The position numbers and the translations under genes are program-made. Of a stretch of 64,000 nucleotides of DNA, positions 10,191-61,847 are shown piece by piece (the stretch's first letter is position 1; every line of letters starts with the position of its first letter). The stretch lies in NCBI GenBank assembly GCA_000092065.1, contig CP000598.1. One strand, 5' to 3'. The notes below the pieces were generated by a model. It saw only the letters and a program-made list of their open reading frames with translations. It ran no database searches and was not told the DNA's origin. Origin of the DNA: Ostreococcus lucimarinus. Lineage: Eukaryota.

Positions 10191-10227
10191 TAAGATCTCT
10201 TCAGAACCAATCGTGTGAGTGAAGTGT

Positions 10228-10725: not shown

Positions 10726-10894
10726 TTGTCCTGGTTACCTATCCATCCCTAAGAAAATATTGTTGCCTCCTCCTGCGGTTTGCAGTCACATTCGAGAGAC
10801 CATAGGTACTCGTGTCGCTGCGTGGGGTGCAAGGTCCGGGGTGTAGATATCGAACCGCCTGATTTCACACCTGGACGTTCGTGATCCGACGAGA

Positions 10895-11085
10895 CCTGAC
10901 GAAATGACGAACTTGTTTTGTCGTCCCCAAATTCGTCAGCCCGTCGTTCGGTCACACTTTGTGTGTACCAATGATGAAAATGACGAAATGTTAAAATATT
11001 TTAATGTTTATTTTTATTTTAGATCTATGACAAGCAACAGTGTAGACCTTTATGAAAACAGTTCGTCATTCGTCATTTCGTCAGG
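10895..11085. repeat. Inverted repeat around an AT-rich spacer (also at 22837-23027)
   Basis: cctgacgaaatgacgaac (10895-10912) is the reverse complement of gttcgtcat(tcgtcat)ttcgtcagg (11061-11085). The arms resemble an internal piece of the 9704-10020 element (cctgatttcac, caaaccatggtc). Confidence 0.7.
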
Positions 11086-11150
11086 ATCCAAACCATGGTC
11101 TTTTCGGTGTCTTGTTGAGTCTTCATATTGCAAATGTACGAATCACAAAA

Positions 11151-11669
11151 TTAGTATGAACACCAGACGACCGCCGGCGCGAGCTCCGTCTCCCCCGTGT
11201 ACCCATTGTTCTTCAGCCACTCGAAGCACCCGTCGCGGTCAATTTCCCAATAGACGCCCTTCTCGTCCCTACCTTGCCTCAGGTGGTCCTCTTCCATTGG
11301 GATCCTGTGGCCCTTTTCCTTCTTGAAGAAGTCCTTGAGCTTATTGCCGACCTTCGTCGCGCTATCTTGTCCACGCGCAGCCGCTGGCAACCACGTCTGG
11401 TATTCGATGAAGATGTCACTGTTGCGGATTTTATTTCCAACCCACTTCTCAGGGAATTCAACAGTGACGCAATGCTCAAACCATCGAGTGAACTTGGGCA
11501 TGCAGCCACGCTTCATTTCCGAATACGCGTCGGTCGTAGGTCTCGTGCGCTCCACATGATAACCGGTACGGAGAAGTTTATATTTATTAATTAAAGACTC
11601 GCGCGTGTTGGCGCTAAATGATTTTATTGCTGCCGAGAGACTCAAGTTTGGCCGTCGTTTGAGTCGCAT
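11151..11669 (-). CDS. Hypothetical protein (copy 1); weak resemblance to the C-terminal region of D5/P4-type primase-helicases
   Basis: The track ORF 11151..11726 starts at TTG; the first ATG is at 11669 (MRLKRRPNLSL..). The segment FTRWFEHCV..IFIEYQTWL..KVGNKLKDFFKK..GVYWEIDRDGCFEWLKNNGY is the basis for the tentative similarity. Function is unverified. Confidence 0.45.
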   Translation of the reverse strand: MRLKRRPNLSLSAAIKSFSANTRESLINKYKLLRTGYHVERTRPTTDAYSEMKRGCMPKFTRWFEHCVTVEFPEKWVGNKIRNSDIFIEYQTWLPAAARGQDSATKVGNKLKDFFKKEKGHRIPMEEDHLRQGRDEKGVYWEIDRDGCFEWLKNNGYTGETELAPAVVWCSY

Positions 11670-11746
11670 CGATGGGTCGCGCCCGCCGATATAACGCCGG
11701 CGTTTCGGACACGATCTTGAAAACAAGCACTGGTTGACTTGATTGA

Positions 11747-14272: not shown

Positions 14273-14409
14273 CGTCGCGCGTTGAAATGCGGCGACGACA
14301 AGTGGCGACGGTGACGCGATCTGCCCGCACGCAATTCAATTCCTTCGGGTCACCTTATCTTTTGGAGCCCCCGGAAACGCGACTGTTTACCAATACGATG
14401 GTTCCCGGG

Positions 14410-14685
14410 TATTGATTACTGGGCCTGTTGGCGCCCCGCGGGTGTGTGTGTGCCAGCCCGTAGGGTTTAAGGTTTAGGATCCGAAATATGGAGCCTCGCT
14501 ATTAAGCCGGGGATCCTCCGCGGGCACGCGCCCCCGCGGGCGTGTGTGTTTTCGCGGTCGGTCGGACGGGAAGCCTGTTGGCGCCCCACGGGTTTGTGTG
14601 TCGGTCCTTAGCGTTTGGGGTTTAGTATCGGACATACGGAGCCTCACTATTTAGCGGTATGACCACATATATTAATTGATTTATA
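14410..14685. repeat. Degenerate telomere-like / subtelomere-like block (1.5 units); related block at 17466-17640
   Basis: Shared unit: ggggatcctccgc..ccgcgggcgtgtg..ttcgcggtcggtcggacg..ccgttggcgccccgcgggtttgtgtg..agggtttag.ggttaggatcggacatatggagcctcactatttagc. Confidence 0.8.
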
Positions 14686-22124: not shown

Positions 22125-22161
22125 TAAGATTTCTCCAGAACGAATCGTGTGAGTGAAGTGG

Positions 22162-22659
22162 TCAAGCCAAGCCACGCAACTCATCTACCGTAAATTGATA
22201 CTTGTCGAGACTGCGCTTCGAAGGCAGCGTGCCGCGCGCTCGAGCATTCTTGAGGCACGTCTTACGCAGTATTCTTTTCGCTTGCTGCTTGTAATAACTG
22301 AGTTGTCTGTAGTTACCATCGCCGCCGACCCGCTTCGGCGTATATTGAGCTCTGCTGTAGGCCGGACTCCCGTCCACGTTCTCGTGGCACGCGTGTTTCT
22401 GGCTGCGTCCAGCAACTCGGGAGTTGAATAAGCCGTCGCGCTTCTCTCTCATGTAGGCACTTTTACGTTGATGGAGCTCTCCAGCTGGAATGTCCTTTTC
22501 GAGAACTCTCACGTCCGCGTCGCCAAACTTGAAGATTGGATGTCGTGCGTATTTATGCGAGGCAAGGCGCGCTCTGAGCGAACCTGTCGTCGATCCGATG
22601 TACGTCTTGTTACATTTCGCATTATCGCTAAACATTTCGTACACGCATCCCGACGGCAT
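22162..22659 (-). CDS. GIY-YIG family nuclease-like protein (copy 2)
   Basis: Same 165-aa ORF as copy 1 with about 9 aa substitutions (for example CDK/CNK, FTF/FKF, DES/DGS). The frame is intact. Confidence 0.6.
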   Translation of the reverse strand: MPSGCVYEMFSDNAKCNKTYIGSTTGSLRARLASHKYARHPIFKFGDADVRVLEKDIPAGELHQRKSAYMREKRDGLFNSRVAGRSQKHACHENVDGSPAYSRAQYTPKRVGGDGNYRQLSYYKQQAKRILRKTCLKNARARGTLPSKRSLDKYQFTVDELRGLA

Positions 22660-23092
22660 TTGTCCTGATTACCTATCCATCCCTAAGAAAATATTGTTGC
22701 CAAAAGTGCTCCTCCTGTGGTTTGCAGTCACATTCGAGAGACCATAGGTACTCGTGTCGCTGCGTGGGGTGCAAGGTCCGGGGTGTAGATATCGAACCGC
22801 CTGATTTCACACCTGGACGTTCGTGATCCGACGAGACCTGACGAAATGACGAACTTGTTTTGTCGTCCCCAAATTCGTCAGCCCGTCGTTCGGTCACACT
22901 TTGTGTGTACCAATGATGAAAATGACGAAATGTTAAAATATTTTAATGTTTATTTTTATTTTAGATCTATGACAAGCAACAGTGTAGACCTTTATGAAAA
23001 CAGTTCGTCATTCGTCATTTCGTCAGGATCCAAACCATGGTCTTTTCGGTGTCTTGTTGAGTCTTCATATTGCAAATGTACGAATCACAAAA

Positions 23093-23611
23093 TTAGTATG
23101 AACACCAGACGACCGCCGGCGCGAGCTCCGTCTCCCCCGTGTACCCATTGTTCTTCAGCCACTCGAAGCACCCGTCGCGGTCAATTTCCCAATAGACGCC
23201 CTTCTCGTCCCTACCTTGCCTCAGGTGGTCCTCTTCCATTGGGATCCTGTGGCCCTTTTCCTTCTTGAAGAAGTCCTTGAGCTTATTGCCGACCTTCGTC
23301 GCGCTATCTTGGCCACGCGCAGCCGCTGGCAACCACGCCTGGTATTCGATGAAGATGTCACTGTTGCGGATTTTATTTCCAACCCACTTCTCAGGGAATT
23401 CAACAGTGACGCAATGCTCAAACCATCGAGTGAACTTGGGCATGCATCCACGCTTCATTTCCGAATACGCGTCGGTCGTAGGTCTCGTGCGCTCCACATG
23501 ATAACCGGTACGGAGAAGTTTATATTTATTAATTAAAGACTCGCGCGTGTTGGCGCTAAATGATTTTATTGCTGCCGAGAGACTCAAGTTTGGCCGTCGT
23601 TTGAGTCGCAT
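23093..23611 (-). CDS. Hypothetical protein (copy 2 of 11151..11669)
   Basis: Identical to copy 1 except for one substitution (EYQTWL to EYQAWL). Confidence 0.45.
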   Translation of the reverse strand: MRLKRRPNLSLSAAIKSFSANTRESLINKYKLLRTGYHVERTRPTTDAYSEMKRGCMPKFTRWFEHCVTVEFPEKWVGNKIRNSDIFIEYQAWLPAAARGQDSATKVGNKLKDFFKKEKGHRIPMEEDHLRQGRDEKGVYWEIDRDGCFEWLKNNGYTGETELAPAVVWCSY

Positions 23612-23688
23612 CGATGGGTCGCGCCCGCCGATATAACGCCGGCGTTTCGGACACGATCTTGAAAACAAGCACTGGTTGACTTGATTGA

Positions 23689-26220
23689 TTAGGAAACCTT
23701 ATCCGTGCCTTTTACGCTGAGCCCGGTCATGGACGGCTTCGTCGGCATGGTGAACGCGGTGTAGTCCGCCGCCGTGGGCACCGTGATGCTCGTGTCGTAC
23801 GACATCCCGGAGCACGCCGACGCATCGGCGGGAGCAAGCATTTCGACACCACTTTCGAGTTTCAAGACGTACCGGTCGCCAGTCGATGGTTGTTTGAACG
23901 TGGTGCCATCGGGGATCAGGACATCCGGACGGCGATGGTAACCATTGTTGTCGTCGCACTCCTCGTTGCCATACTGGTCGACCTCGGGCGCCGCGCGCGA
24001 ACCAGTCATCGGATTGAAGCAAATGAACGGCGCGTCGCCCAACCAACCGCCTTCGTAACGCACGTTGAGATTCACCCCGGAGTAGTCGGTACCGGATGGA
24101 GAGCGCAGCAACACGGCGTCCGTGGGTATCTTGCCTTGAAGCTGGAGAGGCGCATCCATGAACTTCTTTGACGCGGAGTCCGAAGGATCTTCGAGCCACG
24201 CCATGCCCTCCCAATTGCTTGAGCTCCACTCGTAGTGCACATCCAATTTGTTGGGTTCCTCGCAAACGTCGGTAGTGGCGGTGCAACTCAAAGTGTCGAG
24301 GTTCGCAGGTGTAGCTTCGAAGAGAACCATATGAACTTCTCCCGAGTCAAAGAATGAGTTGGTTGGGTCCATTACGACTTCAGCGCCGAGGGTGCCGGAA
24401 ACGTCTTCCTTCAACGAGCCGGTATCTTTGTCGAAGACGTACTTTTTATAAGTGCTTCGAGCGTCGTTGTATCCGTTCGGCGAGCCGTAGAACTGGCTGT
24501 CGTGACTGCTCGCACTCGATAGCTTCGTCTGGTCGATACACCGCTCGCCGCACGTGAGTGCGAGGTGGCTGCTGAGCGACCCAGGGGGGACGGTTTGCGC
24601 GTCAGACACTTTGAAGTGCGTCAGGTTAAGCAAACTCGCAGAGCCTCGGCCGAAGATGCTTCCCCAGCAGCGTATGATTTGGTTGTCAATGTCAGCCATC
24701 GTGAGCGCACGCGGAGTCGTGATTGAGTTCGTGTTCAGCGATCCACCGTTCCAAGTTCGCTTCGACGACAACACGAGTGCGTTCGCGTCGGAGTCATACC
24801 TGAACTTGACCTCAACTTCTGCAGCGTTAGTGTCATCCCAGAACCAGCCTGTGATCGTCGCCCCTTGGTAGTCGCTTGCGCTTCGCACCGTCGCCGTGAA
24901 CTTGTACAACACCCCGCGTGAGACTTTGAGCCTCTTGTTCACGTTCAGTATCGGATCATCCCAATCGACAATTTCCTCTACTACGTTCCCGTCGGTGAAC
25001 GCGGTTTGAGCGATAGTCTTCTCGGCGGTACTGAGCGCGGTGTCGGAAATGTAGTCGTAATCGGAAATGTAGAGATTGCCCGGATAGTGCAGATCAGCAT
25101 TATACGTCTTGCCGTCGCTGCCTGTAGCCTGAAGATGCACGTAGCTTTGAAGGTTCACCTTCGCCCCGTTGCTGTCGTACGCGCCGTAGCGCTCACCGAA
25201 GAACGATCTGTTCTCGAGTTCATCGCAGAATGACTGCCCGTACGCCTTCGTCTTGACGAGCGTAGCGGTAGTCACCAATTGACCCGCTTGTGTCGAACCA
25301 TTATCAAAGTCGATGGTCTGGAAAGAGGCCTTCGTGATGTCGTTTTCTGCGCGCGATTTAGCACCCGCGGTGAATGAATTGCTGCCTCGTGTCACCTCTT
25401 CCCACCACGTGACCCCGGTCGCCGTGCAATCCGAATCCGCGTCGGTGGTTTCGCACTCGCGACGAACCACACCTTTGATGCGTTGGGACGCGGTCGAGCC
25501 AGTCGGCGATTGGTACGTAAAGGTAAAGTTTTTCACCAAGATTTTGTCAGACTTGATGGCGACGTCATCGCGCTTGACGATCATTTCCGTGTCGATGTTC
25601 GGCATTTCTGGGGTATCGCTGAGGGCTACCCAGACGTTCGTCTTGAAATCACGGGTATCGCTCGCGTCGTCGATGTCTGGGCCCGTGGCGTTGACGACCC
25701 AACGGTACGTAACCTTACCCTTGATTCGGTCGCCGTCGCTGTTGTCACAGTGGAAAGGATCGATCTCAGCGATGTATGGGCCAGTGTTCAGGTTCGCCGT
25801 CCAGTTCACCGAGGCGACGTAGCAAAGAACCATGTTTGGTATCTGGAAAATTTCGGTACTTACAGCGTCGACGAACGTCTCCGCCGGCGGCGCCGTGGCG
25901 TAGTCGGACGTCGAAGAGAACGAAGACACTTCGAGAGGCGTCACCTCGACGAGCGAACGACCATCGATTCGAGACGAACCAGAAGACGTCGTCGAAACAC
26001 CCTCTGACGGGATCATGGTGACTTTACGCGGCGTCAACGCCGCCTTGAGCGCGTTCGTCTTCGCCGCGCCCGACAGCCCGCTGACGGTGGTCGGGGTCGG
26101 GGCCGGGGCCGGGGCCGGGGTCGCGTCGTCATCCCTGAGCCCGATGCCGAGGCCGGTGCCAAGGGCGACCACCACGGCGGCGACACCAACGATCGCGATC
26201 GCAACGCCACGTCTCACCAT
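23689..26220 (-). CDS. 843-aa membrane-anchored protein (copy 2 of 11747..14272)
   Basis: Identical peptide apart from one extra PA dipeptide in the linker (APAPAPTPTT). Confidence 0.75.
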   Translation of the reverse strand: MVRRGVAIAIVGVAAVVVALGTGLGIGLRDDDATPAPAPAPTPTTVSGLSGAAKTNALKAALTPRKVTMIPSEGVSTTSSGSSRIDGRSLVEVTPLEVSSFSSTSDYATAPPAETFVDAVSTEIFQIPNMVLCYVASVNWTANLNTGPYIAEIDPFHCDNSDGDRIKGKVTYRWVVNATGPDIDDASDTRDFKTNVWVALSDTPEMPNIDTEMIVKRDDVAIKSDKILVKNFTFTYQSPTGSTASQRIKGVVRRECETTDADSDCTATGVTWWEEVTRGSNSFTAGAKSRAENDITKASFQTIDFDNGSTQAGQLVTTATLVKTKAYGQSFCDELENRSFFGERYGAYDSNGAKVNLQSYVHLQATGSDGKTYNADLHYPGNLYISDYDYISDTALSTAEKTIAQTAFTDGNVVEEIVDWDDPILNVNKRLKVSRGVLYKFTATVRSASDYQGATITGWFWDDTNAAEVEVKFRYDSDANALVLSSKRTWNGGSLNTNSITTPRALTMADIDNQIIRCWGSIFGRGSASLLNLTHFKVSDAQTVPPGSLSSHLALTCGERCIDQTKLSSASSHDSQFYGSPNGYNDARSTYKKYVFDKDTGSLKEDVSGTLGAEVVMDPTNSFFDSGEVHMVLFEATPANLDTLSCTATTDVCEEPNKLDVHYEWSSSNWEGMAWLEDPSDSASKKFMDAPLQLQGKIPTDAVLLRSPSGTDYSGVNLNVRYEGGWLGDAPFICFNPMTGSRAAPEVDQYGNEECDDNNGYHRRPDVLIPDGTTFKQPSTGDRYVLKLESGVEMLAPADASACSGMSYDTSITVPTAADYTAFTMPTKPSMTGLSVKGTDKVS

Positions 26221-27354
26221 CGTCGCGCGTTGAAATGCGGCGACGACAAGTGGCGACGGTGACGCGATCTGCCCGCACGCAATTCAATTCCTTCGGGTCA
26301 CCTTATCTTTTGGAGCCCCGGAGATGCGACTGTTTACCAATACGATGGTTCCCTTTTTTCGGTCGCGAAAGCGCGCGGTCGCCGGGTCAACCAACACCTT
26401 CATCTCCGGGGGGGATCGGAGATTGTTTTTTACGGTCGCGCGCGCGGTCGCCGCGGACGCCCCCGCCCTCGTCGACGCCGCGCTGACTGTCGCGCGCTGA
26501 CTGACACGCGCTGACCGACGCGCGCGCGATCGAACGCCGCGAGTGGGGAAAGGCGAACGCGCGACGTCGTCGCGCGCGCCCCCGCGCGTCCCGGACCGAA
26601 CCGCGCGTCGTCGTCGTCGCCGTCGCCGTCGCGCGCGTACGCTTCGGACCGCGAAAATCGTTTTTCGTCGCGGGGGGACTGCGGTGCGGGTCGTCTCACA
26701 CTTCGGGACGCCGACGATGGTGTCGTCCGGCGACGCCGACGTCGACGACGCGGTCGAACGACGCCATCGGCGCGGTCGCGGTCGCGCCGTTCGCGATCTT
26801 CTGCCGTCGTCCTCGGCGGCGCGCGCGAACACCGTCCCGCCGTTTGAAGCAACCGGTCGAGGCGCGCTCCCGAGGTGGTTTTGCAAGAGCTGTCGGAAAG
26901 CGCTCGACGTGTTTCGTGATTTCGACGGGGAGCTGAAGACGTGTCGACTGTGTTTGCGCGCGCGCAAGAAAGACGCGAAACGCAAACGCGCGCTACGGCG
27001 GGCGGACGCGAAAAGGTCGGGCGACGGCGACGGTAAAAAAGGCGCGGCTTCGTAGAGAAGCCGAACGCAGGGAACGACGACGAGTCGCGGATGCGCGCGA
27101 AACGATCGATCTTTGATTCGACACGCCTTCGGTATAGTAGTGTGTTTTGCTCTGTAGCCTCGCGTGTTGTAACTACCGTTGTACATTTACATCAATGCGT
27201 CGTCGCGTTCGCGGCGATTTTACGTCGTCGTTCGTTCGCGACGCTTCGTTGGACATGGCGCTTCGACACAGAAGAATCCGACGCGCGCACAGTCCGTGGT
27301 GTCGCGCGCACGTCATCGCACACGTCTCATTTCTTATTTCTCCGCTCCAACTCG

Positions 27355-28270
27355 CTATCCTTCTGTCATAAAGCACACCCGGTCCGCGTCCGGGACGACG
27401 TCCTTCTCGTACTCGACGTTCGCGCAGTACATGTGTATTCGAAACAGCGCGCACCCCGTGCCGCACATGCCCGCGTGCACGTGATCGCCTCGAAAAAATA
27501 CGACGGCGCCGTTCGGCACGGGCACGAAGTCCGTTGCCTTGGTCGCGTTCATGGGTATCGGCTTCGACACGATCATCGAGATCTGCTTATGGTCGGAACA
27601 CTTTCGACCGTCGAGATCCGTGTGCCAGTCTTGGCGCTTCGTCTTGCTCTCGCCCTTCGGGGAGTGGCAATAGATGACGCTCGCGCCGCGTCGGTCGCCG
27701 CTCTCCTTCAACCCGCTCAAGAGCCACCCCTTGCGCGACGCCCGCGCGCTTCAGCGCGGCGCCGCAGTACGGATGGAACCGACGCGAGGTCTCGGGCGCT
27801 TCCCCGCGCGCGTTCACGACGTGCGTCCAGCGACTCTTCGTCCACGCCCCGCCCTTCGCTTCGCGCGCGTCGGTCGAGGGTTGGCGTCGATGATTTCTCG
27901 ACGGATCGTCTTCATCCGTGCGTCCGTGAGGCACCGCTCGAACACGGCGTAGCGCTCTTTGGACGGATCGAACATGGCCGCGCCGTGTGAGGTGCACTGT
28001 TTCCCCTTGATCTCCGCCGCGCTCGCTCCCGCCGCGCGCGCGTGTCCAGACCCACGGCGTACGCGAGACGGCGCGTCGTCGCCGCGCTCGTCGGCTTCCA
28101 CGCGTTCGGGAACCTGACGTGTTTGGGTAACCCACGAACGGCGCGCGCGGCGAGCGCCTCCAGGCGCGCGCGCCGCGCGGGAACTCTTCACCGTGCGCGC
28201 GTTTCCACTCGGCGAACACGCCGAGGGCGAGCGCGACTACGCGTCGACGGTGCGTTCCGCGAGTTCGCAC
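27355..28270 (-). pseudogene. Possible Fe(II)/2OG-dioxygenase or cupin-like gene whose reading frame changes at least twice
   Basis: Protein-like pieces lie in three frames. In order: FDPSKERYAVFERCLTDARMKTIRREIIDANP; then WTKSRWTHVVNARGEAPETSRRFHPYCGAALKRAG; then WLLSGLKESGDRRGASVIYCHSPKGESKTKRQDWHTDLDG..FFRGDHVHAG. The family call is weak. Confidence 0.25.
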
Positions 28271-28350
28271 CCGCGCCGGCGACGCCTGATCGTCTCGGCG
28301 CGCGATCGTCGCGGCATGGGACGCGTTGGAGGGCGGGGGTCGGGACGCGT

Positions 28351-28428
28351 CGCGGTTTCCCGCGCCGCGCGTCGCGCGTCGTCGGGTGCTGCGGGGACCG
28401 ACCCCGCGGTTTTGTGCGAAATGAAATC
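28351..28428. repeat. Second copy of the 801-875 GC-rich repeat
   Basis: See 801-875. Confidence 0.8.
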
Positions 28429-29262
28429 GTTCGTCTAACCGTACTGCTGCGAGTAGTCTCGGTCGTTCAAGTAAAGGTGGCGCGCCCAGTGCTGGTCGGC
28501 CGGAAACACCACGCGCGAGGGGAGGGGCGGCTGAAAATTCGGTTTCTGAGGTATTCTCGAGCGCGTGGTTGTCCCTCCCGAGCGCGCGTTTCGCCGTGGA
28601 ATCGTCCTTCGTCGAGTGCTCGTCGAAGCGTGACTCACCGTCGTCCGCTGACGTGGCGTCACGAGTCGATACGCGATTTCGCGGGTCACTCTCCCCGATT
28701 CGTGAACCGCCAAACGTAAATTAATATCTTTGCGCGCGAAAAAAGATCTTTTGACAGCTGTCAAAAAGCCGTTCGAATGCGCGAACGCTCGAATGGCGCC
28801 GCGCCAGCAGTTCGCCGCGCGCGCGACGAGGCGACGAGTCGATCGACCCGATTCATTGATTTCCAAACATCTTTGATTCGCGATAAAACGCTCGCTCGCT
28901 CGCTCGCTCGCGCCATGAGTGAACCTACGGAAACGAAAACGGCGGACCCGTTGAATTGGAAGAATGAGGAAAACGTCAAGCGCTTCGTTCGACCGAGTCG
29001 CTGGTTGTCTCTCGATATCGCGGGCTACCCGGTGCGTGACACATTTCTGTCGATCGAATTTCGCTCGCGCGTCCTGCGCGAAGCGCGCGCGTAGGACGCG
29101 TTTGGGTCGAATGCACCGCGGCCCGATTTTCGAAATTATTTCGCGCGCGATGACACCTTCGTCACGAGTATCGTCGCTTCTGGCGACGTGCGCGCGCAAA
29201 GACAACGAACTGGCAAATACAAAATCCATCATCGACTGACTCGCGAATCCCGCGCGACGTAG

Positions 29263-31488
29263 ATGTTGCGCATCAACTGGGTCTCCGCCGCGCTCGCGTC
29301 CTCCCTGCTCTGGGGCTTCATCATCTGGGTGCTCGTCGACGAGACGGGATCGTCAAGCGAAGTGACGCGTTGGACGAAGTGGATCACGAGTAACTTTACG
29401 TGGCTGTACGTCGTCACGCAGGATGTCTGGTTTATCTTCATCTTGTATCTTTTGGGTACAAAGTACAAAGACGTGAAACTCGGTCGCGACGACGAAGAAC
29501 CCGCCTTTGACTATTACGAATGGTTTTCCATGATGTTTGCGTGCGGTATCGGCGTTGGTCTGTACACTTTCAGCGTCATGGAACCCATCAGCTACTACCG
29601 CGGCGTCGTGTCAAAGCTTCCGATCGTCAACGACGATCAGCGCGCGCAGCAGGCGATCACGCTCACGCTCTTCCACTGGGGCCTTCACGGTTGGATTCCG
29701 TACGTCCTCGTCGCGATGACTTTGGGCGTCGTGTGCTACCGTCACGGACGTCCGATGACTATCCGCTCCGCGTTTTATCCGCTCTTCGGCGAAAATATCA
29801 ACGGTCTCTTCGGCGACGCGATCGACGCGTTGTCCATCGCGACGACGACGTTCGGCGTGTGCACGTCCCTCGGGCTCGGCGTCACGACGATCGCGTCTAC
29901 GATGAACCGCTTGAACAGCGATGTGGATCCAAACGATGACGCCACCAAGATCCTAATCATCTGGTTGATCACTGCCGTCGCATGTACGTCGGTCATTTTG
30001 GGTTTGAAGAACGGCATCAGAAGGCTTTCCAAGATTACGTTCTCCATCGGTCTCATCTTGCTCTTTGGAATCATCGTCGCGGACAACCCTTGGTTCTTAC
30101 TCAACTCTTTCGTGCAATCGATGGGTCATTACGTGCAATGGGTCACGCAGCTCGGCTGGGACACGGACACGTGGCCCGCGTCCGAAGCCATCATGCGCGA
30201 CACGGGCGCTTGGCACTACCTCGCTTGGGGCGCCAAGGGTGAGAGCGATGCGATCGCGCGGACGCTTTCGACGCGTGGCGCCACCGCCCTGACCGACACT
30301 GAGCTTAACACCATGTGGGGCGTGCGAACCGACGACGGTTTCATGAACACGTGGACCCTCTTCTATTGGGGGTGGTGGATTTCGTGGGCCCCGTTCGTCG
30401 GCATGTTCATCGCCAGGATCTCGCGTGGTAGAACCGTCGGTGAAGTCATCAAGGGTGCATTCATCGCGCCTATTTTGTTTGGTTTCTTTTACCTCACCGT
30501 TTTGGGCTCCCTCGGAATCAAAATGGAGCGCATCGCCGAGCTCGCGTTGACGACGGCGCCGGCGGACGTCGACTGGCGAAGCGGCGACGTCAAGTGCACC
30601 ACCCTCGGGTACGCCGCTGACGGGACGCCGACCACCGCCGGATCGATTCAGCTCGCGAAAGAGGGCTACTACGCTCTGTCGTGCCGTCCGACATCGTCGC
30701 ACATCCTTGACATCGTTGAGCCTTACGGCAAATTATCGACGCTCTTTCAAGCGATGATTCTCATCGCCATCATCCTGTACTTTATCACGTCGTCGGATTC
30801 TGGATCGTACGTCGACGACTTGATCTCCGCCATGGGCTACGAAAATCCGCCAGTGTTGCAAAAGGTTTACTGGGCGTGCACCGAAGGCGCGCTCGCGCAA
30901 GCTTTGGTGACTTCCGGCGGCTTGAAAGTGGTGCAAGGCGTCTCCATCGTCTGCGGTTTGCCGTTTACGTTTGCTCTCAACTTTATGGTCGTCTCTCTCT
31001 GGCGCGCGCTGAAGGATGAATTCAACGACGAGGCGCAACAAAAAACTCGCAAGGGGTTCAATACGTGCATGCTGGACGTCCTCGAAGGGTACGAGCCGGA
31101 AACCGCAGGCGCGAACGCGCCGGATCGCAAAACGCGCGTCGTCGCCGCATTGAAAAATTTCATCTACCCGTTCGACGCGATTCGCAAGGCGAAGATCGCC
31201 GTGGGGACGGATGAAAAATTTGCCTCCATCAACGCCGCCGTGGTCACTGGCGTGCTGTGGACTGCGATCGGTCTCCTCGCGTCCACGAAAGCCGGCGCGG
31301 GCGCGCACTCCGTGGCGTGGCTCTTCTACCTCATCTTGATTTTCTGCATCGCGAACATTCGCCGAGAAGTTCGCGCGTCCAGAAACATTCTCGGTAACAT
31401 CATGGAGGATTACACCGCCGCTGCTTTGTATCCGCTCGCGCTCGCGCAGATGGAACACGAGGCTGAATCCGACCCGAAGCTGGCGTAG
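29263..31488 (+). CDS. BCCT-family transporter (betaine/carnitine/choline type)
   Basis: ATG verified. 741-aa multi-pass protein with FHWGLHGWIPYVLVAMTLGVVCYRHGRPMTIRSAFYPLFG and the signature-like WTLFYWGWWISWAPFVGMFIARISRGRTVGEVI. Confidence 0.9.
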   Translation: MLRINWVSAALASSLLWGFIIWVLVDETGSSSEVTRWTKWITSNFTWLYVVTQDVWFIFILYLLGTKYKDVKLGRDDEEPAFDYYEWFSMMFACGIGVGLYTFSVMEPISYYRGVVSKLPIVNDDQRAQQAITLTLFHWGLHGWIPYVLVAMTLGVVCYRHGRPMTIRSAFYPLFGENINGLFGDAIDALSIATTTFGVCTSLGLGVTTIASTMNRLNSDVDPNDDATKILIIWLITAVACTSVILGLKNGIRRLSKITFSIGLILLFGIIVADNPWFLLNSFVQSMGHYVQWVTQLGWDTDTWPASEAIMRDTGAWHYLAWGAKGESDAIARTLSTRGATALTDTELNTMWGVRTDDGFMNTWTLFYWGWWISWAPFVGMFIARISRGRTVGEVIKGAFIAPILFGFFYLTVLGSLGIKMERIAELALTTAPADVDWRSGDVKCTTLGYAADGTPTTAGSIQLAKEGYYALSCRPTSSHILDIVEPYGKLSTLFQAMILIAIILYFITSSDSGSYVDDLISAMGYENPPVLQKVYWACTEGALAQALVTSGGLKVVQGVSIVCGLPFTFALNFMVVSLWRALKDEFNDEAQQKTRKGFNTCMLDVLEGYEPETAGANAPDRKTRVVAALKNFIYPFDAIRKAKIAVGTDEKFASINAAVVTGVLWTAIGLLASTKAGAGAHSVAWLFYLILIFCIANIRREVRASRNILGNIMEDYTAAALYPLALAQMEHEAESDPKLA

Positions 31489-31844
31489 TAACGTCGACGC
31501 CGTCCAAGACTTCTTTTTTCCAAACCGTCCTTTTATTAATCGAGCTCGATGACGACGAGTCGCAGACTTTTCGTTCATCAAGAGCAATCAAATCACGTTG
31601 GGTGAGCGATCACCGTTCACGGGCCCGCGAGGCCGGTGAGCTTTTACCATCGGTTGACCTGCGTCGTCGTCACCCGTACGCGTTGGAACAAATCATACGT
31701 GTTGTGCGTGTTGTCCACCGTCGCCGCTCGAACTGCATCCAGCGTCGACGGTGCTCGTTGTTGTGTTTGACTTTATTACATTTCTCTCATCGGTCCTACG
31801 TAATACTTTGGCTGACATGAATTAATTTAATAACCACAAGAAAT

Positions 31845-32471
31845 TTACTTTACGAAACCGTCGTCGTCCGCGCGCCGCGTCCGCGCGTTCGCGTCGTTCA
31901 TCTTGAAAACACCCGCGAGATACCGATAGATGAATCCAGAGTACGGTACCACCGCTCGCCGGTCTCTCGCTCGCGACGCGTCGCCGACGGCGGTGGACGT
32001 CGTGCGACGTTCTGCGTCGGGAACGCGCATGGCCTCCGACGCGCCCGGGACGTAGTTTTCGTCGCGCGTCGTCTTCGTGTCACCGCCACGTCCGACCGAT
32101 TTCTTTGACGCCTTCACCGACTTGAGGAAATGCTTTTGCGCGTGCGATCTGATTTGCGCCGCCGTCCTCGTCCCGACGTGTGTTTCGATCCGTTTCCAGT
32201 CGCGATCGTACAACTCGAGCGCGCGTAAAAACTTGTCGTGTTCGATCCTCGTCCACGGCGCGCGCGTCTTCGTTCGCACGTACGGTTTTCGCGGTTTCTT
32301 TGAACGCATCAGCGGCGCGCGCGCCGTGGTGGCTCTCGCCCGCGCGGCTTCGTTCTCGCTCGCGATTTTTCGTACGGCGGCGTCGACGAGCGCCCGCACC
32401 GAGAGCGACGACGACGACGACGGCGACGTCGTCGCGTGTTTTTCGCTGTTTGGGCGGTCGTCGTTCGTCAT
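31845..32471 (-). CDS. Single-repeat MYB transcription factor, SHAQKYF class (CCA1/RVE-like)
   Basis: ATG verified. [45 protein letters not shown]. Confidence 0.8.
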
Positions 32472-33773
32472 CGGCGACGGCGCGTCGGCGTCTGCCGCGT
32501 GACGAACTACAAACGCCCGATGAGACTCCGAGAAGACGACGACGCGCGCGGACGCGCGTCCAATCTCCAGGGCGCGTCGTCATACAACCACTTTATATAG
32601 AATAATTCGAATTATTATACTGCCTCAAAATCAATATAATGACGACACGCATACCAGTTTACCGTAGAAATGGTAATAGCCCTTTCGCCAATCGAAGCTC
32701 GCGGGTAAGGTCGGTCGATACACACACGTCACGTTTCCTCAGGCTGAGAGCGCCACGCCTTTTGACGCGAGCGATACTGCCTTGAGCCTTTCTTCACGAG
32801 TTTCACCGTAGCGCATCGCACAAGAAAACACAAAAACTCAGCCCTGCGTAGACAGACGAGGGTGGCGCCGGAGTATGACGGCGAAACGCGCCGCACGAGT
32901 TCAACGGGTTTCTCTCCAGAGCACTGGAACGGCGCGTTTTTTGTCGCGAATCCACGCAGCCCTTCTCTACCGCCGTAAAAGGTAAGTGCTTGTTGAAAAG
33001 CCGTGATTGCTTGCTGCTGCGTTGTCGCGTCAGCCGCTTCGCGCACGTATAAGCCCGCCGCGAGCCGTGAAAGTAAACGGGTACTCCGTGATGAGCGCTG
33101 TTTTTGGAAATCGGGATCCTCGTGGCTCCCAACGTTGTTAGCGAAAGGATGGAACGTGCATTCAGACCGTCGCCGTGTTCGGCTCCCGTATATTTGCCAC
33201 GCACTCGTCGTGCGTATACTTCACCTTGTAGTAGGGGTCGTTTTGCTTGCGCTGGTTCGCAACGAAACCCCGGCCGCGACCACGTCGAGCACACGATCGT
33301 TGCCGTGATAACCTGCGATGGTTGCGCGTAAAATGCGAGCAGCGCACCGCAGCGAAGGCAGCACCGCTCAACGCGTACCGGAGAAAGGTATACGAAGCGA
33401 TCGCCGCGGGCGTCGCGAGATACGTTTGGTATCCTAGTTTGAGCGGTCTATCGGCGTCGTAGAAAACTTCCGGGGCGGGGAGTATGGAGTTCATTCAGCC
33501 AATGCTTACTCGCCGTAGTCGGTTCATCTGTCGACATGCGTGCTGTGACTCAGGATGCGCGGCAGTGGCGCGTATCGTTAGACTTGCGACGGTGTGTCTC
33601 GCCAGAAATCAAAAGCACACATTTATTGAGTCGGGATGGCGTGGTGTTGTAAGTATTTACGTGGATTTAGCTCATGGCTATTAAATGCACGCCGAGGAAG
33701 TATGCCACACATACGACGCATCGTGAGTGCGACAAATCTAACATTGCTACCGCGAGAACGTTCGAGTGTGTCT

Positions 33774-34700
33774 TCAAATCAGCGCGACGCCAGGAGACCA
33801 CGGAAAGCGTCCCGCGAATCGTCGCCGAGGACACGCGTCTAAATACGTCCAAAACGATTTGAGTGATTTCACCGTTGAGCTATATGACGCGCGTTCGTTG
33901 AACGGATCCAGTGCTTGCCCCGTCGACCCGACGTCGTTTCGACACCCGTACGGATCGCGCGCGAACGCATCGCACGCTTTCGCTTCGCGCGTCGCCAGTT
34001 CGTTTTCGTTCACCGCCGCGGTACCGATGTAGGTCATATTGCTCCAGGAATACCCCATCGCGTCGAGATGAAGCTTTTCGAACCGCGCGCGCTCGACGTG
34101 AAACCCGACGACGGTGATCTTTGAAGGAAACTTTCGAGCGAGTTGAAAGAACCGACACACGCTGAATAACGCGTGCTCGAACCCGTCGTTCGCGTGTTCT
34201 TCCGTGAACGTCCTAGACTCGACCTTCGCGTCGACGCCGAACCAATCGTTCGCCCTGGCGACTTGCCAATACGAGCTCGCCCGAGTCATCACCGCGCCGG
34301 CGTCGATTGATTTTCCTCCACTGAAAACGAGCACTGCGTGTGGGTTCCTCGCTGCCTCGCGAACACCGATCTCGATGTGTTCGACCAGCGACCGTACGTA
34401 TCCTTCCGACGACGTTTGATCGCGCTCTAAAGCCCAGTCGCCCGGGTCTTCCGCGGCTTTCGCGAAATCGCTACCCAAGTAAACCGCGCGCGCGGGAACG
34501 ACGACGAGCTCGTCCACGTCCGTCACCGCGGGCACTATCTTCTTCTCCTGTGCGCTCAGTCGCATCACCGTGTGCGTGATCGCTGCTCGCGGCGCATGAT
34601 TCGTCCTCCTGAGCGCTTCTATCGTGACGCAACACACGCACAGAAGAAACCAGAGCGAACGTTCGAGGTTAAGAATCCTCGTCGCGCGCTTCGCCCACAT
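33774..34700 (-). CDS. DUF218 (YdcF/ElyC-like) domain protein
   Basis: The first ATG is at 34700 (the track start at 34730 is GTG). AVLVFSGGKS..SSYWQVARANDWFGVDAKVESRTFTEEHANDGFEHALFSV..KITVVGFHVERARF fits the DUF218 pattern. Confidence 0.55.
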   Translation of the reverse strand: MWAKRATRILNLERSLWFLLCVCCVTIEALRRTNHAPRAAITHTVMRLSAQEKKIVPAVTDVDELVVVPARAVYLGSDFAKAAEDPGDWALERDQTSSEGYVRSLVEHIEIGVREAARNPHAVLVFSGGKSIDAGAVMTRASSYWQVARANDWFGVDAKVESRTFTEEHANDGFEHALFSVCRFFQLARKFPSKITVVGFHVERARFEKLHLDAMGYSWSNMTYIGTAAVNENELATREAKACDAFARDPYGCRNDVGSTGQALDPFNERASYSSTVKSLKSFWTYLDACPRRRFAGRFPWSPGVALI

Positions 34701-34929
34701 CCGAGCGTATCGAGTGAACGCATACGTCACGCGATCGCGGACTCGCGATGCGTACGTCGACGCGTTCGGCGCCGCGACGTCGTCGACTCGTCGGCGGACG
34801 CGCGCGCGTGTCCTTCGTCGCGCGCTGTGCAGGGCCGGAGTTTTTCACGCCCTCGGCTGCGTCAAACAAAAACCCGTCCTCCGAAACACACCGGCGTCCT
34901 CACACCGCCGCGCTCGCGGCGTCGCCTCG

Positions 34930-37266
34930 ATGCGTCTGCGCGTCGCGTCGCTCTTCTCCGGCATCGGCGGTCTCGATCTCGGGCTCGAGCGCGCCGGACA
35001 CGACGTGGTGTTGCGCGTCGAGCGCGACGCGCACTGTCGCGAGTTGCTTCGACGGCAATACCCCGACGGCGCGCTCATGGACGACGTCGCCGCCGTCATG
35101 CCGCGCGATCTCGACGGCGTCGATCTGCTCGCCGCCGGGTTCCCGTGCAACGATTGCTCGTTCGAAAACGCGGCGCGACCGGGTTTGGAACACGGCCGCG
35201 ACACGCGTCTCGTGCGACACGTCTTTCGCCTGCTTCGCGAGAGACGCGTGGAGTGGGTGCTCCTGGAGAACGTCGTCGGGCTTTTGCGTTGGCACAGGCG
35301 GCGTCGTCGGAACGAGCGCCAGGGAGAGAACACGTCGCGGTCGCGCGATGCGCGTGCGCGGCCGCCGGCGATCGATCACATCGTCACCGAATTCGAAAAA
35401 CTCGGCTACCGCTGGGCGTATCGCGTGGTCGATTTGCTCGCCTTTGGCGTGCCGCACAAGCGCCGACGCGTCTTCATCGTCGCGAGCGCGCACGGCGACC
35501 CGCGAGACGTGCTTCTGAGTCAAGACTCGCAGTGTCAAGGCCGGTGCGAGACTTTCGCGGCGCACGCGCGCGTCCACCGCCGTCGGTGTTACGACTGCTT
35601 CAACGCGCCGCCGCGCGACGCCGCGACGGTCGAAGCCGTGTCCATCGACGTCGGCGAGAACAGACGACCGCCTCTGCGCGACATTTGCCAGTGCTTGACG
35701 ACGTCGAACGGGCGGCGGACGTGCGTGGTGACGCGCGCGGCGAACGACGCGCGCGAGACGTCGACGACGCGCGCGCTCGCCGTCGAGGACGCCGAACGCC
35801 TGATGGGATTCGAGCCGGGGTACACCGCGTCGTGCTACCCGATCGCCGACGCCAACGGGCGCGCGCCGATGAGTTTCAACGTCGACGCGCAAACGCGCAA
35901 ACGGTTCGCGTTGTTGGGGCTCGCGTGCGCGGTGCCTCAGAGTGCGTGGCTCGGCGAGCGCCTGCGAAACCCGTACGCCGTCAAGTTTCCGTACGCCGCG
36001 CTGTGCGCGCCGTTCCGCCGCGCGTGTCCGGGCGGGGACGACGACGACCAGGAAGGCGCGTGGCCGCTCGCAGCGTACAACGTATTCGAGCTCGACGACG
36101 CGGACGAGCCGAGATGGAAAAGCCGCCGACGCGCGCCGAAGACGCTCTCGGAATCCCCCGTCGTGCGCGCGTTCGTGCCGCTGGGTGAGTTTTTGAAGTT
36201 TCAACGTCGCGCGCGGGACGTCGATCCCGAAACTTTGCGCACGTACGCGCGGCGACTCCGCGCGAGCGGCCACGACGACGTCGACGAGCTCGTGCGTCTC
36301 GCGTTGCTCGGCGACGAGCGACGCGATGGCAAGCGTCGGCGGATCGCGGCGCCGCACGTCGGTACTACCGTTCGTCGCGCCGAATCCGTCTGGTCGTCGA
36401 GCGACGACGAACGCGATGATTCCCGAGACGACGATGCGATGCCGACGTTCGGCGCGCGCGCGTGGGTGCGGTGGCGAGGCAAACGCGGCGACGTGGCGAC
36501 GCGTTGGCCGTGTCTCGTGCTCGACGCGGGCGAAGATGGGGTGCGAGGCGTGACGACGCATCGCCACGTGGTATTTTTCGACGCCGCGCGTTCGCACGCG
36601 CGCGTCAGATCGACGGATATCGTCGGCCGATTTGGTGGAGACGACGACGACGGCGACAATATATCAGAACGCGCGGACATCGTCGGCGCGATCGAGCGCG
36701 CGAGGGTGTGGAAACGCGACGATCGAAATCACGAGTACGACCCGATCGCGTGGTCGTTTCGCGAACCGACGGCGTGTCTCGAGTGCGCAACGTGTCGCGA
36801 AGACGCGCCGCCCGCGGTGTCGACGCCCGATCGCAGTCGCGGCGGCAACGACGGTGTGTTGTCGCGAAGTCTTCGATCGAGCTTTGCGTCGGATTCAAAA
36901 ACATCATCATCATCGAAGTGTCCGCAAGCGACGGAAATAATTCCTCGCGCGCGCCTCGGGCACGTCGGCGCGACGCTCGCGTTGCGCCGCGGCGACGCCG
37001 TCGGACGAAGACTGCGCGTGTTTTGGCCCATCGAAAACGCGTTTTTCGCGGGCACGATCGCGGCGTTCGACAAACAAACGTACACGTTTCGCGTCGATTA
37101 CGACGACGGCGACGTCGAGGTGGCGTTCAAGCCGTGGATGGAGTCGGTGTGGCCGCTGAGGGGTGAAGATGAGTTCGCGACGTGTGGGGTGAAAACCCCT
37201 CGTGCGATCACACCATTCAATCAAAACACGCCAGAAATCTGCGAAGCACCAAAGACTCACTTTTAA
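34930..37266 (+). CDS. DNA (cytosine-5) methyltransferase with C-terminal PWWP-like and Tudor-like modules
   Basis: ATG at 34930 (MRLRVASLFSGIGGLDLG, motif I). Motif IV GFPCNDCS, motif VI LLENVVGLL, motif VIII PHKRRRVFIVAS, motif X-like GLACAVPQS. PWWP-like AWVRWRGKRGDVATRWPCLVLD..VVFFD. Tudor-like RVFWPIENAFFAGTIAAFD..FRVDYDDGDVE. Confidence 0.85.
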   Translation: MRLRVASLFSGIGGLDLGLERAGHDVVLRVERDAHCRELLRRQYPDGALMDDVAAVMPRDLDGVDLLAAGFPCNDCSFENAARPGLEHGRDTRLVRHVFRLLRERRVEWVLLENVVGLLRWHRRRRRNERQGENTSRSRDARARPPAIDHIVTEFEKLGYRWAYRVVDLLAFGVPHKRRRVFIVASAHGDPRDVLLSQDSQCQGRCETFAAHARVHRRRCYDCFNAPPRDAATVEAVSIDVGENRRPPLRDICQCLTTSNGRRTCVVTRAANDARETSTTRALAVEDAERLMGFEPGYTASCYPIADANGRAPMSFNVDAQTRKRFALLGLACAVPQSAWLGERLRNPYAVKFPYAALCAPFRRACPGGDDDDQEGAWPLAAYNVFELDDADEPRWKSRRRAPKTLSESPVVRAFVPLGEFLKFQRRARDVDPETLRTYARRLRASGHDDVDELVRLALLGDERRDGKRRRIAAPHVGTTVRRAESVWSSSDDERDDSRDDDAMPTFGARAWVRWRGKRGDVATRWPCLVLDAGEDGVRGVTTHRHVVFFDAARSHARVRSTDIVGRFGGDDDDGDNISERADIVGAIERARVWKRDDRNHEYDPIAWSFREPTACLECATCREDAPPAVSTPDRSRGGNDGVLSRSLRSSFASDSKTSSSSKCPQATEIIPRARLGHVGATLALRRGDAVGRRLRVFWPIENAFFAGTIAAFDKQTYTFRVDYDDGDVEVAFKPWMESVWPLRGEDEFATCGVKTPRAITPFNQNTPEICEAPKTHF

Positions 37267-37382
37267 ACGCTTTGGTTGTGGCGTATAACCAACGATGGAG
37301 GAAACTTCAACAACACGTCAACTCTGCTCGCGCGTTGTTTTCTCAAAGCGCTTTGACGAAGACTATCTCAATGCGAAACTTG

Positions 37383-38300
37383 TCAGCAGTTGACAAAAAA
37401 TAGTTTACAAAGATTTCGCGCGCGCTCGATGACTTCCATTTCGTCGTGCGTAGCGGCGAACTCCAATTCAGGCCACGTCACTAGAGGCGCGCGCTTTCCC
37501 GCGTGCGCGTTATGATTCTTTCGTCGTTCGATGGCGCCTTTGAAATCCAAGTCTTCACACCCGATGAAATGAGAACGCGCGCATAACATTTCGAACAGTT
37601 TTGAATCGTTCGCGTCCTCAATTTTGAACCAACATTCCGCCGCTTCGTATCCAAGATTTGTGTATGTCGTCCACCACTCTAAACATTGCACGTCGTGTCG
37701 CAAAGAGTTGAAAACGCTTATGTTGACCTCAAAATCGCGACGAATGTCCTTACCAGCCATTTCAGAGTTGAAATTTGTATCAAATTGCCACTTCGTTCCT
37801 CTGCAGCTGCGTATCACTTGGAGCGGATGTCGAACGATGAGGAAAGTATTCGTGAATACTTCGATTGATCTAATGGGAAATTGTGGTGAACTCGCCAGCC
37901 AGTTTGAGCTTCCGTTCACTCCGAATGTCTCGTGACCTATGTCTACGCCAACATCGCGAAATACTTGAGATACAAAGCCGGTTCCTGAATAGCCGGCTCC
38001 GGTTATGAGAGCTGCGGACGCGATTGCGGATTTGTCGCCCACCCGTACCGGTTTTGAACGACGTCGGAACGACGTCTCGCTGAGAGCATCTTCTGAGAGA
38101 CATTGGTCTAGGCATGCGGCACAAACCGTTTCTGATGCAGTAACAAAGAACGAATCGTTCAAATTAACGTACCCCGTTAGCAATAAGGCGAGAATAGTCG
38201 ACAGAAATCCACCGACCCTGGTAAAGCGCTCTCTGACTTTGACGAGCGAATACTCGTCACGAGTGACTCGAACTTCACACGCCAGCGGCGATTCGATCAT
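37383..38300 (-). CDS. Type II membrane protein, sulfotransferase-like (tentative)
   Basis: ATG verified. Anchor FLSTILALLLTGYV. GAGYSGTGFVSQVF resembles the 5'-PSB loop and IVRHPLQVIRS resembles the 3'-PB motif of sulfotransferases. Confidence 0.4.
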   Translation of the reverse strand: MIESPLACEVRVTRDEYSLVKVRERFTRVGGFLSTILALLLTGYVNLNDSFFVTASETVCAACLDQCLSEDALSETSFRRRSKPVRVGDKSAIASAALITGAGYSGTGFVSQVFRDVGVDIGHETFGVNGSSNWLASSPQFPIRSIEVFTNTFLIVRHPLQVIRSCRGTKWQFDTNFNSEMAGKDIRRDFEVNISVFNSLRHDVQCLEWWTTYTNLGYEAAECWFKIEDANDSKLFEMLCARSHFIGCEDLDFKGAIERRKNHNAHAGKRAPLVTWPELEFAATHDEMEVIERARNLCKLFFVNC

Positions 38301-45697: not shown

Positions 45698-45976
45698 GAC
45701 CCCCTGAAATTTCAGGGGGTCTATGAGTCACTAGACCCCCTGAAATGTCAGATACTTTCTAGACCGTCTAGAAAGTGTCTGCGAGCTATACCTTATAAAT
45801 TGTGATCAATCGGGCCTAGTGCGTCGATAAGTGATGATGATTACAAGGAGCTATCATTGATTAGTTCATTAATGAGTGTTAACTCGTCAATTAGTCATCC
45901 TAGGTTAACTAGGGGAAGCTATACTTCATATTTTACTCTTCAGATTTCTAACAGTGTCTGACATTTCCAGGGGGTC
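45698..45976. mobile_element. MITE-like element with ~21-bp terminal inverted repeats plus an abutting 24-bp perfect palindrome made of two TIR halves
   Basis: Palindrome gaccccctgaaatttcagggggtc at 45698-45721. Left TIR gaccccctgaaatgtcagata at 45734-45754. Right TIR tgtctgacatttccagggggtc at 45955-45976. GAAT lies on both outer flanks. Internal hairpin at 45749-45781. Confidence 0.6.
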
Positions 45977-61825: not shown

Positions 61826-61847
61826 AAGTTAACGTGCCCATCGAGTA

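Follow-up and report, generated by a model that had tools for sequence, protein, structure and literature searches.

Genes and features of the patch

We analyzed a GC-rich patch at about 26 to 37 kb within a 64,000-nt stretch of Ostreococcus lucimarinus DNA (contig CP000598.1; the whole stretch is referred to here as the window). Three open reading frames (ORFs) of the window are exact sequence matches to annotated proteins of strain CCE9901 (ABP00655.1, ABP00660.1, and ABP00617.1), all encoded on a 149,386-bp contig. Because of these three matches and the published 149-kb size of chromosome 18, the whole window, with a GC content of 53.4%, is assigned to chromosome 18, the small outlier chromosome (SOC) of this strain. 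In related species, the SOC is linked to resistance against prasinoviruses. The O. lucimarinus SOC has been described as a 149-kb chromosome with 53% GC and 78 ORFs, with many enzymes of sugar metabolism and methylation among its products; its GC content is low over the entire length, compared with more than 59% overall in other Mamiellales genomes (Moreau et al. 2012, PMC3491373). Earlier work has already established the O. lucimarinus SOC with its low GC content and its cargo, as well as the capture of standard-chromosome DNA by SOCs; we found no paper describing the particular stretch at 26 to 37 kb.

The patch contains a transporter gene, a gene for a small Myb protein, two genes for proteins of unassigned function, a DNMT3-like methyltransferase gene, and a pseudogene (Table 1). 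These are not the housekeeping-type genes that an initial annotation, made from the sequence alone, had proposed for this stretch.

Table 1. Features of the patch and its flanks (positions in the window; GC3, GC content at third codon positions)
Feature	Position	Strand	GC3	Basis and remarks
Segmental duplication, copy 2	22125-26353			98.8% identical over 4230 nt to copy 1 at 10191-14406 (self-blastn)
843-aa predicted protein, ABP00655.1	23689-26220	−	0.72	Paralogue ABP00650.1 at 11747-14272
Possible small ORF, C-terminal CxxC...CxxC motif	26543-27055	+		ORF list; candidate, GC 0.64-0.74, little codon periodicity
Frameshifted pseudogene, ~340-aa family, weak PhyH-like (2OG-Fe(II) dioxygenase) signature	27355-28300	−	0.81-0.82 (surviving pieces, 27.4-28.3 kb)	Three-frame translation, tblastn
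79-nt GC-rich repeat	28348-28426; second copy 799-875			Copies 95% identical (self-blastn)
BCCT (betaine/carnitine/choline) transporter, b-type	28915-31488	+	0.77	Pfam PF02028, E=2.8e-148, 494.8 bits; full-length profile match
208-aa single-Myb protein (SHAQKYF/REVEILLE-like)	31845-32471	−	0.77	Pfam PF00249; RVE6 domain in relative L038
110-aa ORF, function unassigned	33162-33494	−	0.68	Kept in wild contigs, 91-96% amino acid identity
308-aa protein, function unassigned	33774-34700	−	0.69	DUF218 annotation or weak match on some distant relatives only
DNMT3-like C5 cytosine methyltransferase, ABP00617.1 / XP_001422300.1	34930-37266	+	0.78	Pfam PF00145, PF15626, PF21743; exact look-up
305-aa ORF, no known domain	37383-38300	−	0.51	First low-GC gene on the right
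FkbM-family methyltransferase, ABP00660.1	38819-39928	−	0.56	First typical SOC glycan/methylation gene
174-nt AT-rich element	45780-45953; partial inverted copy 61847-61929			Self-blastn

The BCCT gene (GC 0.58) consists of a first exon at 28915–29032, a 230-nt intron at 29033–29262, and a second exon at 29263–31488. Its short first exon reads MSEPTETKTADPLNWKNEENVKRFVRPSRWLSLDIAGYP, and the intron carries a CTGAC motif. This first exon is kept upstream of every Ostreococcus BCCT gene examined, and the two-exon structure is common to the O. tauri gene encoding XP_022840951.1. A 265-aa ORF ("p265," 28435–29232) runs antisense to exon 1 and the intron, lacks codon periodicity, and was set aside as a probably spurious artifact of the metagenome annotations that list it.

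The DNMT gene (GC 0.66) encodes a protein with mono-CXXC and Tudor domains, whose catalytic motifs I (FSGIG), IV (PCN), and VI (ENV) lie at residues 9, 72, and 113, respectively. The PF00145 match (E=4.3e-32) spans only positions 2–165 of the 324-position profile; a simple pattern search gave no GNxV-type motif X, and Pfam gave no PWWP match, although many relatives have one. On the 21-kb wild contig L002 (11035–13375), the DNMT gene is split into ORFs of 488 and 323 aa, which points to a frameshift in this allele or else to faulty assembly. The 308-aa protein yielded no domain match of its own in a Pfam scan.

To the left of the BCCT gene, the DNA between 26.2 and 28.4 kb is GC-rich and contains no long clean ORF. 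The pseudogene in this interval was recognized only through a full HMMER scan. It has intact relatives of 340–355 aa (P0541, P0542, and P0547, the last with a weak PhyH match), to which it aligns by tblastn over most of its own length only with frame changes, and it contains in-frame stops; its last 121 codons (27355–27720) alone still form one ORF. Pfam and PDB sequence searches with the ORFs at 26.3–28.4 kb and the stitched pseudogene translation returned nothing significant, and the small ORF at 26543–27055 has weak Pfam matches only. A pairing of this zinc finger (zf)-like ORF with the DNMT gene was considered on account of a 36-aa match (61%) beside a DNMT homologue in contig L023; we judged it too thin to retain.

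The 79-nt repeat is shared by two GC-rich stretches, one opening the window and the other located at 28.4 kb. Logan contig L001 begins within it (window position 28397), and three wild contigs cross it intact; the repeat explains only the short-read assembly break of L001. The repeats at 26.1, 26.5, and 35.7 kb are only short, GC-rich, and microsatellite-like. An Rfam scan of 25.0–38.5 kb gave sub-threshold chance matches only, a scan of the window for tRNA genes gave none, and Pfam detected no transposase or integrase domains in the scanned window ORFs.

Base composition and edges of the patch

The GC content is 0.612 at 26353–37270, versus 0.537 at 1–26352 and 0.499 at 37271–64000, and the observed-to-expected CpG ratio is 1.78 in the patch versus about 1.4 outside. 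The compositional island that the initial annotation had drawn between 26353 and 37270 is therefore real as a contrast with its surroundings, but it is not homogeneous: GC is 0.66 at 25881–28400, 0.57 at 28401–34680, and 0.67–0.68 at 34681–37160, and the left edge lies elsewhere. Likewise, "very GC-rich" is accurate only relative to the SOC, as 61% is in line with the ordinary genome-wide value in these algae (over 59%; PMC3491373).

Both edges are steps in GC rather than a gradual drift, as the sliding profile proposed as a check now confirms. Specifically, the two strongest cuts found by binary likelihood segmentation fall at 25,865 and 37,205 (log-likelihood gains of 103 and 113), and optimal-partition segmentation cuts at 25,880 and 37,020–37,160. 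The right step is sharp, with 200-nt windows falling from 0.65 (36.8–37.0 kb) to 0.45 (37.2–37.4 kb), i.e., within ~300 nt, and coincides with the 3′ end of the DNMT gene, whose stop codon ends at 37266, where this edge had been expected. On the left, GC rises from 0.56 to 0.72 within ~200 nt at ~25.9–26.1 kb and then dips to 0.58 at 26.2–26.4 kb. The segmental duplication does end abruptly at 26353, as had been noted; the compositional edge placed there does not hold, however, since the step lies within the duplicated DNA itself, where the 843-aa gene has its GC-rich 5′ end. The corresponding end of copy 1 is GC-rich in the same way (13921–14620; GC 0.64). In the 843-aa protein, the N-terminus encoded there is hydrophobic and gives way to a short stretch rich in Ala, Pro, and Thr.

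What is uniform in the patch is the composition at third codon positions. The BCCT and DNMT genes differ at the first and second codon positions and are alike at the third (GC1/GC2/GC3 of 0.51/0.45/0.77 and 0.69/0.52/0.78, respectively), so the contrast between 0.57 and 0.68 GC inside the patch is a first- and second-position effect. The inner dip to 0.57 thus reflects the amino acid make-up of a membrane transporter, not a changed background composition. Across the right junction, GC3 drops from 0.78 in the DNMT gene to 0.51 in the 305-aa gene and then stands at 0.56 in the FkbM gene. On this side, 10 of 12 genes have a GC3 of 0.44–0.59, the exceptions being a sugar transporter gene (0.68) and an epimerase gene (0.71). 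The left edge is weak in GC3: the adjoining 843-aa gene already reaches 0.72, as does its 841-aa paralogue, and a 216-aa gene (0.75) and an ARM-repeat gene (0.74) are also high, with the remaining left-flank genes at 0.53–0.65. The codon-usage check suggested for the initial annotation hence bears out the high GC3 of the patch genes (0.68–0.78) and the drop on the right but gives little contrast on the left. GC3 in the patch differs from that of the right flank (Mann-Whitney, p=0.002) and the left flank (p=0.012), and a run of six consecutive genes with a GC3 of at least 0.68 has a permutation p of 0.018.

The spacers behave differently from the genes. Between the BCCT gene and the 308-aa ORF (31.5–34.7 kb), the spacers between patch genes have a GC content of 0.49–0.55 versus 0.43–0.57 for flank spacers, i.e., no difference. 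Higher GC is found in the spacer directly preceding the DNMT gene (0.69) and in the 3-kb stretch on the left side of the BCCT gene (0.64). In genes from standard contexts on contigs of sister Ostreococcus lineages, GC3 ranges from 0.64 to 0.79, with all but one at 0.69 or above. Since the GC3 of the patch (0.68–0.82, pseudogene pieces included) resembles that of these standard genes, the patch genes carry a normal-genome codon composition, and the cluster directly adjoins low-GC SOC cargo, namely, genes for glycosyltransferases, sugar-nucleotide enzymes, and FkbM methyltransferases (GC3 0.44–0.59). The guess that the window belongs to an outlier chromosome was right; the edges of the patch, in contrast, are not boundaries between outlier and normal DNA, since the SOC is outlier throughout. 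They are gene borders within it.

Relatives of the patch genes

The closest relatives of the BCCT gene outside the species are located on standard chromosomes of sister lineages, and all of them have the conserved first exon. One relative with 86% identity belongs to a tandem pair of an a-type and a b-type gene near one end of an 839-kb contig, where the neighbors encode zf-RING, PDCD2/TSR4, IPT, and dynein heavy chain proteins; a second one, with 88% identity, has the same zf-RING, PDCD2, IPT, and dynein context. A relative with 78% identity lies among SpoU, DsbD, AP-mu, and P450 genes, and the a-type gene of O. tauri (64%) occupies that same context on a 717-kb chromosome. The lineage of the 839-kb contig appears to be a different species from O. 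lucimarinus; no O. lucimarinus protein, even of conserved enzymes, occurred among the named members of its 90% protein clusters that were read. A protein search found no BCCT clusters with 86–99% identity to the window gene, which suggests that the SOC copy may be the only b-type BCCT gene of O. lucimarinus.

The other genes have more distant relatives. Outside the species, the DNMT protein has a best match with 62% identity, and its best relatives are metagenomic and green-algal proteins, with bacterial methylases only far down the list. One DNMT homologue (44%) is encoded between genes for RbcX and the mitochondrial pyruvate carrier (MPC), near a Mg-chelatase gene. The nearest relatives of the Myb protein outside the species are 40–43% identical and are encoded beside RuvBL and alanyl-tRNA synthetase genes. 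The 308-aa protein has a best relative outside the species of 56%, and one of its relatives is encoded on a 491-kb contig. For standard-chromosome relatives, the evidence from the DNMT (44%) and Myb (40%) genes is weaker than that from the BCCT gene. The synteny comparison called for initially revealed no collinearity of the patch genes with the standard contexts of their relatives.

The patch in wild contigs

The right junction is stable: at least nine metagenome or SRA contigs keep the order of the DNMT gene, the 305-aa gene, and the FkbM gene. Inside the patch, wild contigs depart from the reference at 32607 or 32806, and genes of the FkbM, glycosyltransferase, or DUF285 type follow. In blastn comparisons with the window, contigs L029, L044, and L064 are collinear with the reference up to 32607, where a 174-nt AT-rich element (the one also present at window 45780–45953) follows, and then an FkbM or glycosyltransferase gene. 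In L043, a gene for an 1821-aa giant DUF285 protein, related to a 2577-aa ORF of the window, adjoins the Myb gene. The order of the Myb gene, the 110-aa ORF, and the 308-aa gene is kept in four others (L028, L030, L031, and L033). The 11-kb patch therefore consists of at least two blocks (~27.0–32.6 kb and ~32.8–37.3 kb) that are adjacent only in some haplotypes, including the reference. The initial annotation had expected breakpoints definable to the base; as wild contigs break the patch at 32607, attach other SOC cargo there, and thus divide it differently from one contig to another, no single pair of breakpoints can be defined at that resolution. This rearrangement matches the hypervariability described for the SOC.

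Wild contigs also differ in the BCCT gene itself. Two deeply diverged BCCT paralogues alternate at one SOC locus, the a-type in L030, L032, and L033 and the b-type in L029 and L034. In the three a-type contigs, the flanks are mostly 92–99% identical to the reference (27049–29040 and 31550–32607), compared with only 41–81% for the BCCT intron and exon 2, and the encoded a-type protein shares 64% identity with the reference BCCT and 80% with that of O. tauri. The swap is limited by the junction of exon 1 with the intron and by the last ~20 codons, and the a-type allele has a GC3 of 0.66, lower than that of the b-type. Two observations concern the same gene pair outside the SOC. An a-/b-type alternative is also present on a standard chromosome of O. 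tauri-like lineages (L013 versus L014), where identity is 94–98% in the flanks and 73% in the 5′ portion of the BCCT body. In another lineage (L020, 5739–12700), both types lie in tandem, with first-exon regions 89% identical and gene bodies only 73–76% identical. These observations fit a tandem pair from which one or the other member was lost through unequal recombination.

The pseudogene region is covered by one wild contig, L032, in which the remnant ORF is kept at 82% identity; a 119-aa remnant ORF with 98% identity to the window remnant was also among the database matches. Patch DNA diverges from wild contigs by 1–6%, versus 0.2–0.6% just to the right. We dropped the idea of a polymorphism step at the right boundary, as the contigs had been chosen for carrying a fully identical 305-aa protein and divergence increases once more farther to the right (1–3.5%).

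Flanking regions

Right of the patch lies classic SOC cargo, in line with the glycan enzymes first noticed there: Pfam identified two FkbM methyltransferases, a GT17 glycosyltransferase, a nucleotide-sugar transporter, STELLO, a GDP-mannose-dehydratase-like protein, and UDP-glucose dehydrogenase. The first gene on this side, for the 305-aa protein, is convergent with the DNMT gene across a 116-nt spacer. It is seemingly absent from the reference annotation, in which the neighbors have consecutive UniProt accessions (A4SA90 and A4SA91), and the exact protein is present on at least 89 contigs from JGI, ENA, Logan, and Tara. The 174-nt AT-rich element has no terminal inverted repeats and so is not a typical miniature inverted-repeat transposable element (MITE); we therefore do not apply this label. 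An epimerase/dehydratase gene (59561 to ~60700, (−) strand; GC3 0.71) lies within a GC-rich patch at 59.6–61.0 kb and shows a frame change ~120 nt past the Rossmann motif, indicating either a short intron or a pseudogene. On the left, the giant 2577-aa ORF (1635–9368, (+) strand) contains DUF285 repeats (12 matched stretches) and internal 75-nt periodic repeats.

Origin of the patch

We consider it fairly probable that the stretch is a composite patch of standard-genome-type genes, captured from standard chromosomes by the SOC and then reshuffled. Pieces of standard chromosomes would have been taken up by the SOC and subsequently reshuffled, partly deleted, and subjected to exchange of paralogues, as is known for SOCs, with at least two blocks that would now merely happen to adjoin in the reference strain. 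The standard composition, the standard-chromosome pedigree of the BCCT gene, the decaying pseudogene, and the strain-to-strain reshuffling would all fit such a capture. Comparable events have been reported in O. tauri, where standard-chromosome translocations onto the SOC (chromosome 19) have been described (Blanc-Mathieu et al. 2017, PMC5498103), and in O. mediterraneus, whose SOC bears 25 translocation signatures totaling 77 kb (Bugnot et al. 2026, PMC13390643). For the patch, we infer the direction and mechanism of transfer, as well as the reason for the undecayed composition, and the standard-chromosome relatives are known from sister lineages.

Several observations weigh against this interpretation. 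No wild contig covers the left junction (26.3–27.0 kb), the flanks contain single genes with high GC3 (the 843-aa gene, 0.72; the 216-aa gene, 0.75; the ARM-repeat gene, 0.74; and the epimerase gene, 0.71), and the test for clustering reaches only modest significance (p=0.018). Apart from the BCCT gene, the patch genes are far from their relatives (DNMT, 62%; 308-aa protein, 56%; Myb, 40–43%; pseudogene, 38–46%), and such divergence looks like what long SOC residence or fast evolution might produce, not recent arrival. The BCCT gene, in turn, has a GC3 (0.77) that is not below that of its standard-chromosome relatives (0.70–0.73), so prolonged exposure to a regional AT bias is not evident. This undiminished GC3 fits either a recent capture or the absence of an AT-biased regime.

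An alternative that we regard as possible, although rather unlikely, is a mosaic based on origin without any recent capture. Here, the patch genes would be old natives of the SOC, their low-GC neighbors would be foreign or otherwise different, and composition would track ancestry. The high divergence of most patch genes (DNMT, Myb, and 308-aa) speaks for this account, as do the gene-by-gene switching of GC3 beside spacers at 31.5–34.7 kb that resemble those of the flanks and the lack of GC3 decay in the BCCT gene relative to its relatives; an alien origin of SOC cargo has in fact been proposed (PMC3491373). However, the 86–88% identity of the BCCT gene, first exon included, to standard-chromosome genes of sister lineages argues for movement, and published SOC dynamics include captures (PMC5498103, PMC13390643).

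A more far-reaching reading, which we regard as doubtful, is that the low GC of the SOC may be no regional property at all and that genes of standard composition persist there for a long time because the patch keeps exchanging sequence with paralogues. Long persistence would be indicated by the deep divergence from relatives with GC3 unchanged, and an example of exchange would be the a-/b-type BCCT cassette at one SOC locus, with the conserved first exon and the last codons as its limits. If true, native genes would be kept on the SOC in the manner of alleles that can be swapped, and gene ancestry could be read from its GC mosaic.

It is improbable that local recombination or GC-biased gene conversion has kept or raised GC3 in the patch. 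In favor of such a process, gene conversion in O. tauri has been reported to be GC-biased and GC to correlate with recombination (PMC5498103), and wild haplotypes show a sharply bounded exchange of a- and b-type BCCT bodies at this locus. Against this stand the spacer GC at 31.5–34.7 kb, which is not raised, and the lower GC3 (0.66) of the a-type allele at the same locus; moreover, steps at gene borders are better fitted by ancestry than by a regional process. Very unlikely is a normal chromosome stretch bounded on both sides by outlier regions, with the edges as outlier breakpoints: the GC steps are sharp and the composition of the patch is that of the normal genome, but the window lies in a 149-kb SOC that is outlier throughout, the patch genes are not collinear with standard regions of relatives, and wild strains split and rejoin the patch differently. 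Horizontal transfer of GC-rich bacterial or viral DNA into the SOC is scarcely credible despite the compositional contrast with the flanks, as the patch equals the host's own standard genes in composition (GC3 of sister lineages), the BCCT gene has a spliceosomal intron and relatives that are green-algal or otherwise eukaryotic, bacterial methylases rank far below metagenomic and green-algal relatives of the DNMT protein, a low-sensitivity test found no DNMT or BCCT relatives in viral contigs, and the scanned ORFs and the window lack transposase or integrase domains and tRNA genes, respectively.

Comparison with known systems

With regard to its methyltransferase, the patch can be compared with the DNMT3-type (PWWP-DNMT) enzymes of green algae. 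The window protein shares motifs I, IV (PCN), and VI (ENV) and a Tudor domain with them, and its relatives are Chlorophyta PWWP/Tudor-DNMT proteins. It differs in being mono-CXXC, in having no detectable PWWP domain, in its identity of at most 62% outside the species, and in being SOC-borne.

With regard to its edges, the patch recalls the boundaries of BOC1, the low-GC region that the big outlier chromosome of Mamiellales contains (Moreau et al. 2012, PMC3491373; bioRxiv 10.1101/2025.04.21.649811), which are likewise sharp steps between ~50% and ~60% GC in a Mamiellales genome. BOC1, however, extends over hundreds of kilobases against normal arms, whereas here an 11-kb patch lies inside an all-outlier chromosome: the high-GC side measures only ~11 kb, low-GC SOC DNA is found on both sides, collinearity is absent, and each edge is no more than one gene border, blurred on the left. 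Reading the GC steps as breakpoints of an outlier region is tempting, and the present data correct it. Genomic islands acquired by horizontal transfer are similar in that a block differs in composition from its neighbors, but the polarity is reversed here, with a host-like block among atypical neighbors, and no mobility genes or foreign affinities were found for the patch in the scanned ORFs and viral contigs.

The closest parallel is provided by the translocation segments on the SOCs of O. tauri and O. mediterraneus. Like them, the patch is located on the SOC, has a standard composition with BCCT relatives on standard chromosomes, is embedded in cargo for glycan metabolism and methylation, and varies in arrangement from strain to strain. 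Unlike them, it is tied to standard chromosomes through relatives in sister lineages; most of its genes are strongly diverged, so any capture would be old or multiple; and it is a composite of at least two blocks rather than one translocated segment. The patch offers a base-resolved O. lucimarinus example of the mosaic make-up of the SOC. The gene-by-gene switch in GC3, together with the ordinary GC of the spacers between patch genes, bears on the cause of the low GC of outlier chromosomes, namely, whether it results from mutation or recombination acting regionally or instead records where the genes originated, and the two BCCT paralogues at one locus in wild strains provide a testable case of allele-like paralogue exchange.

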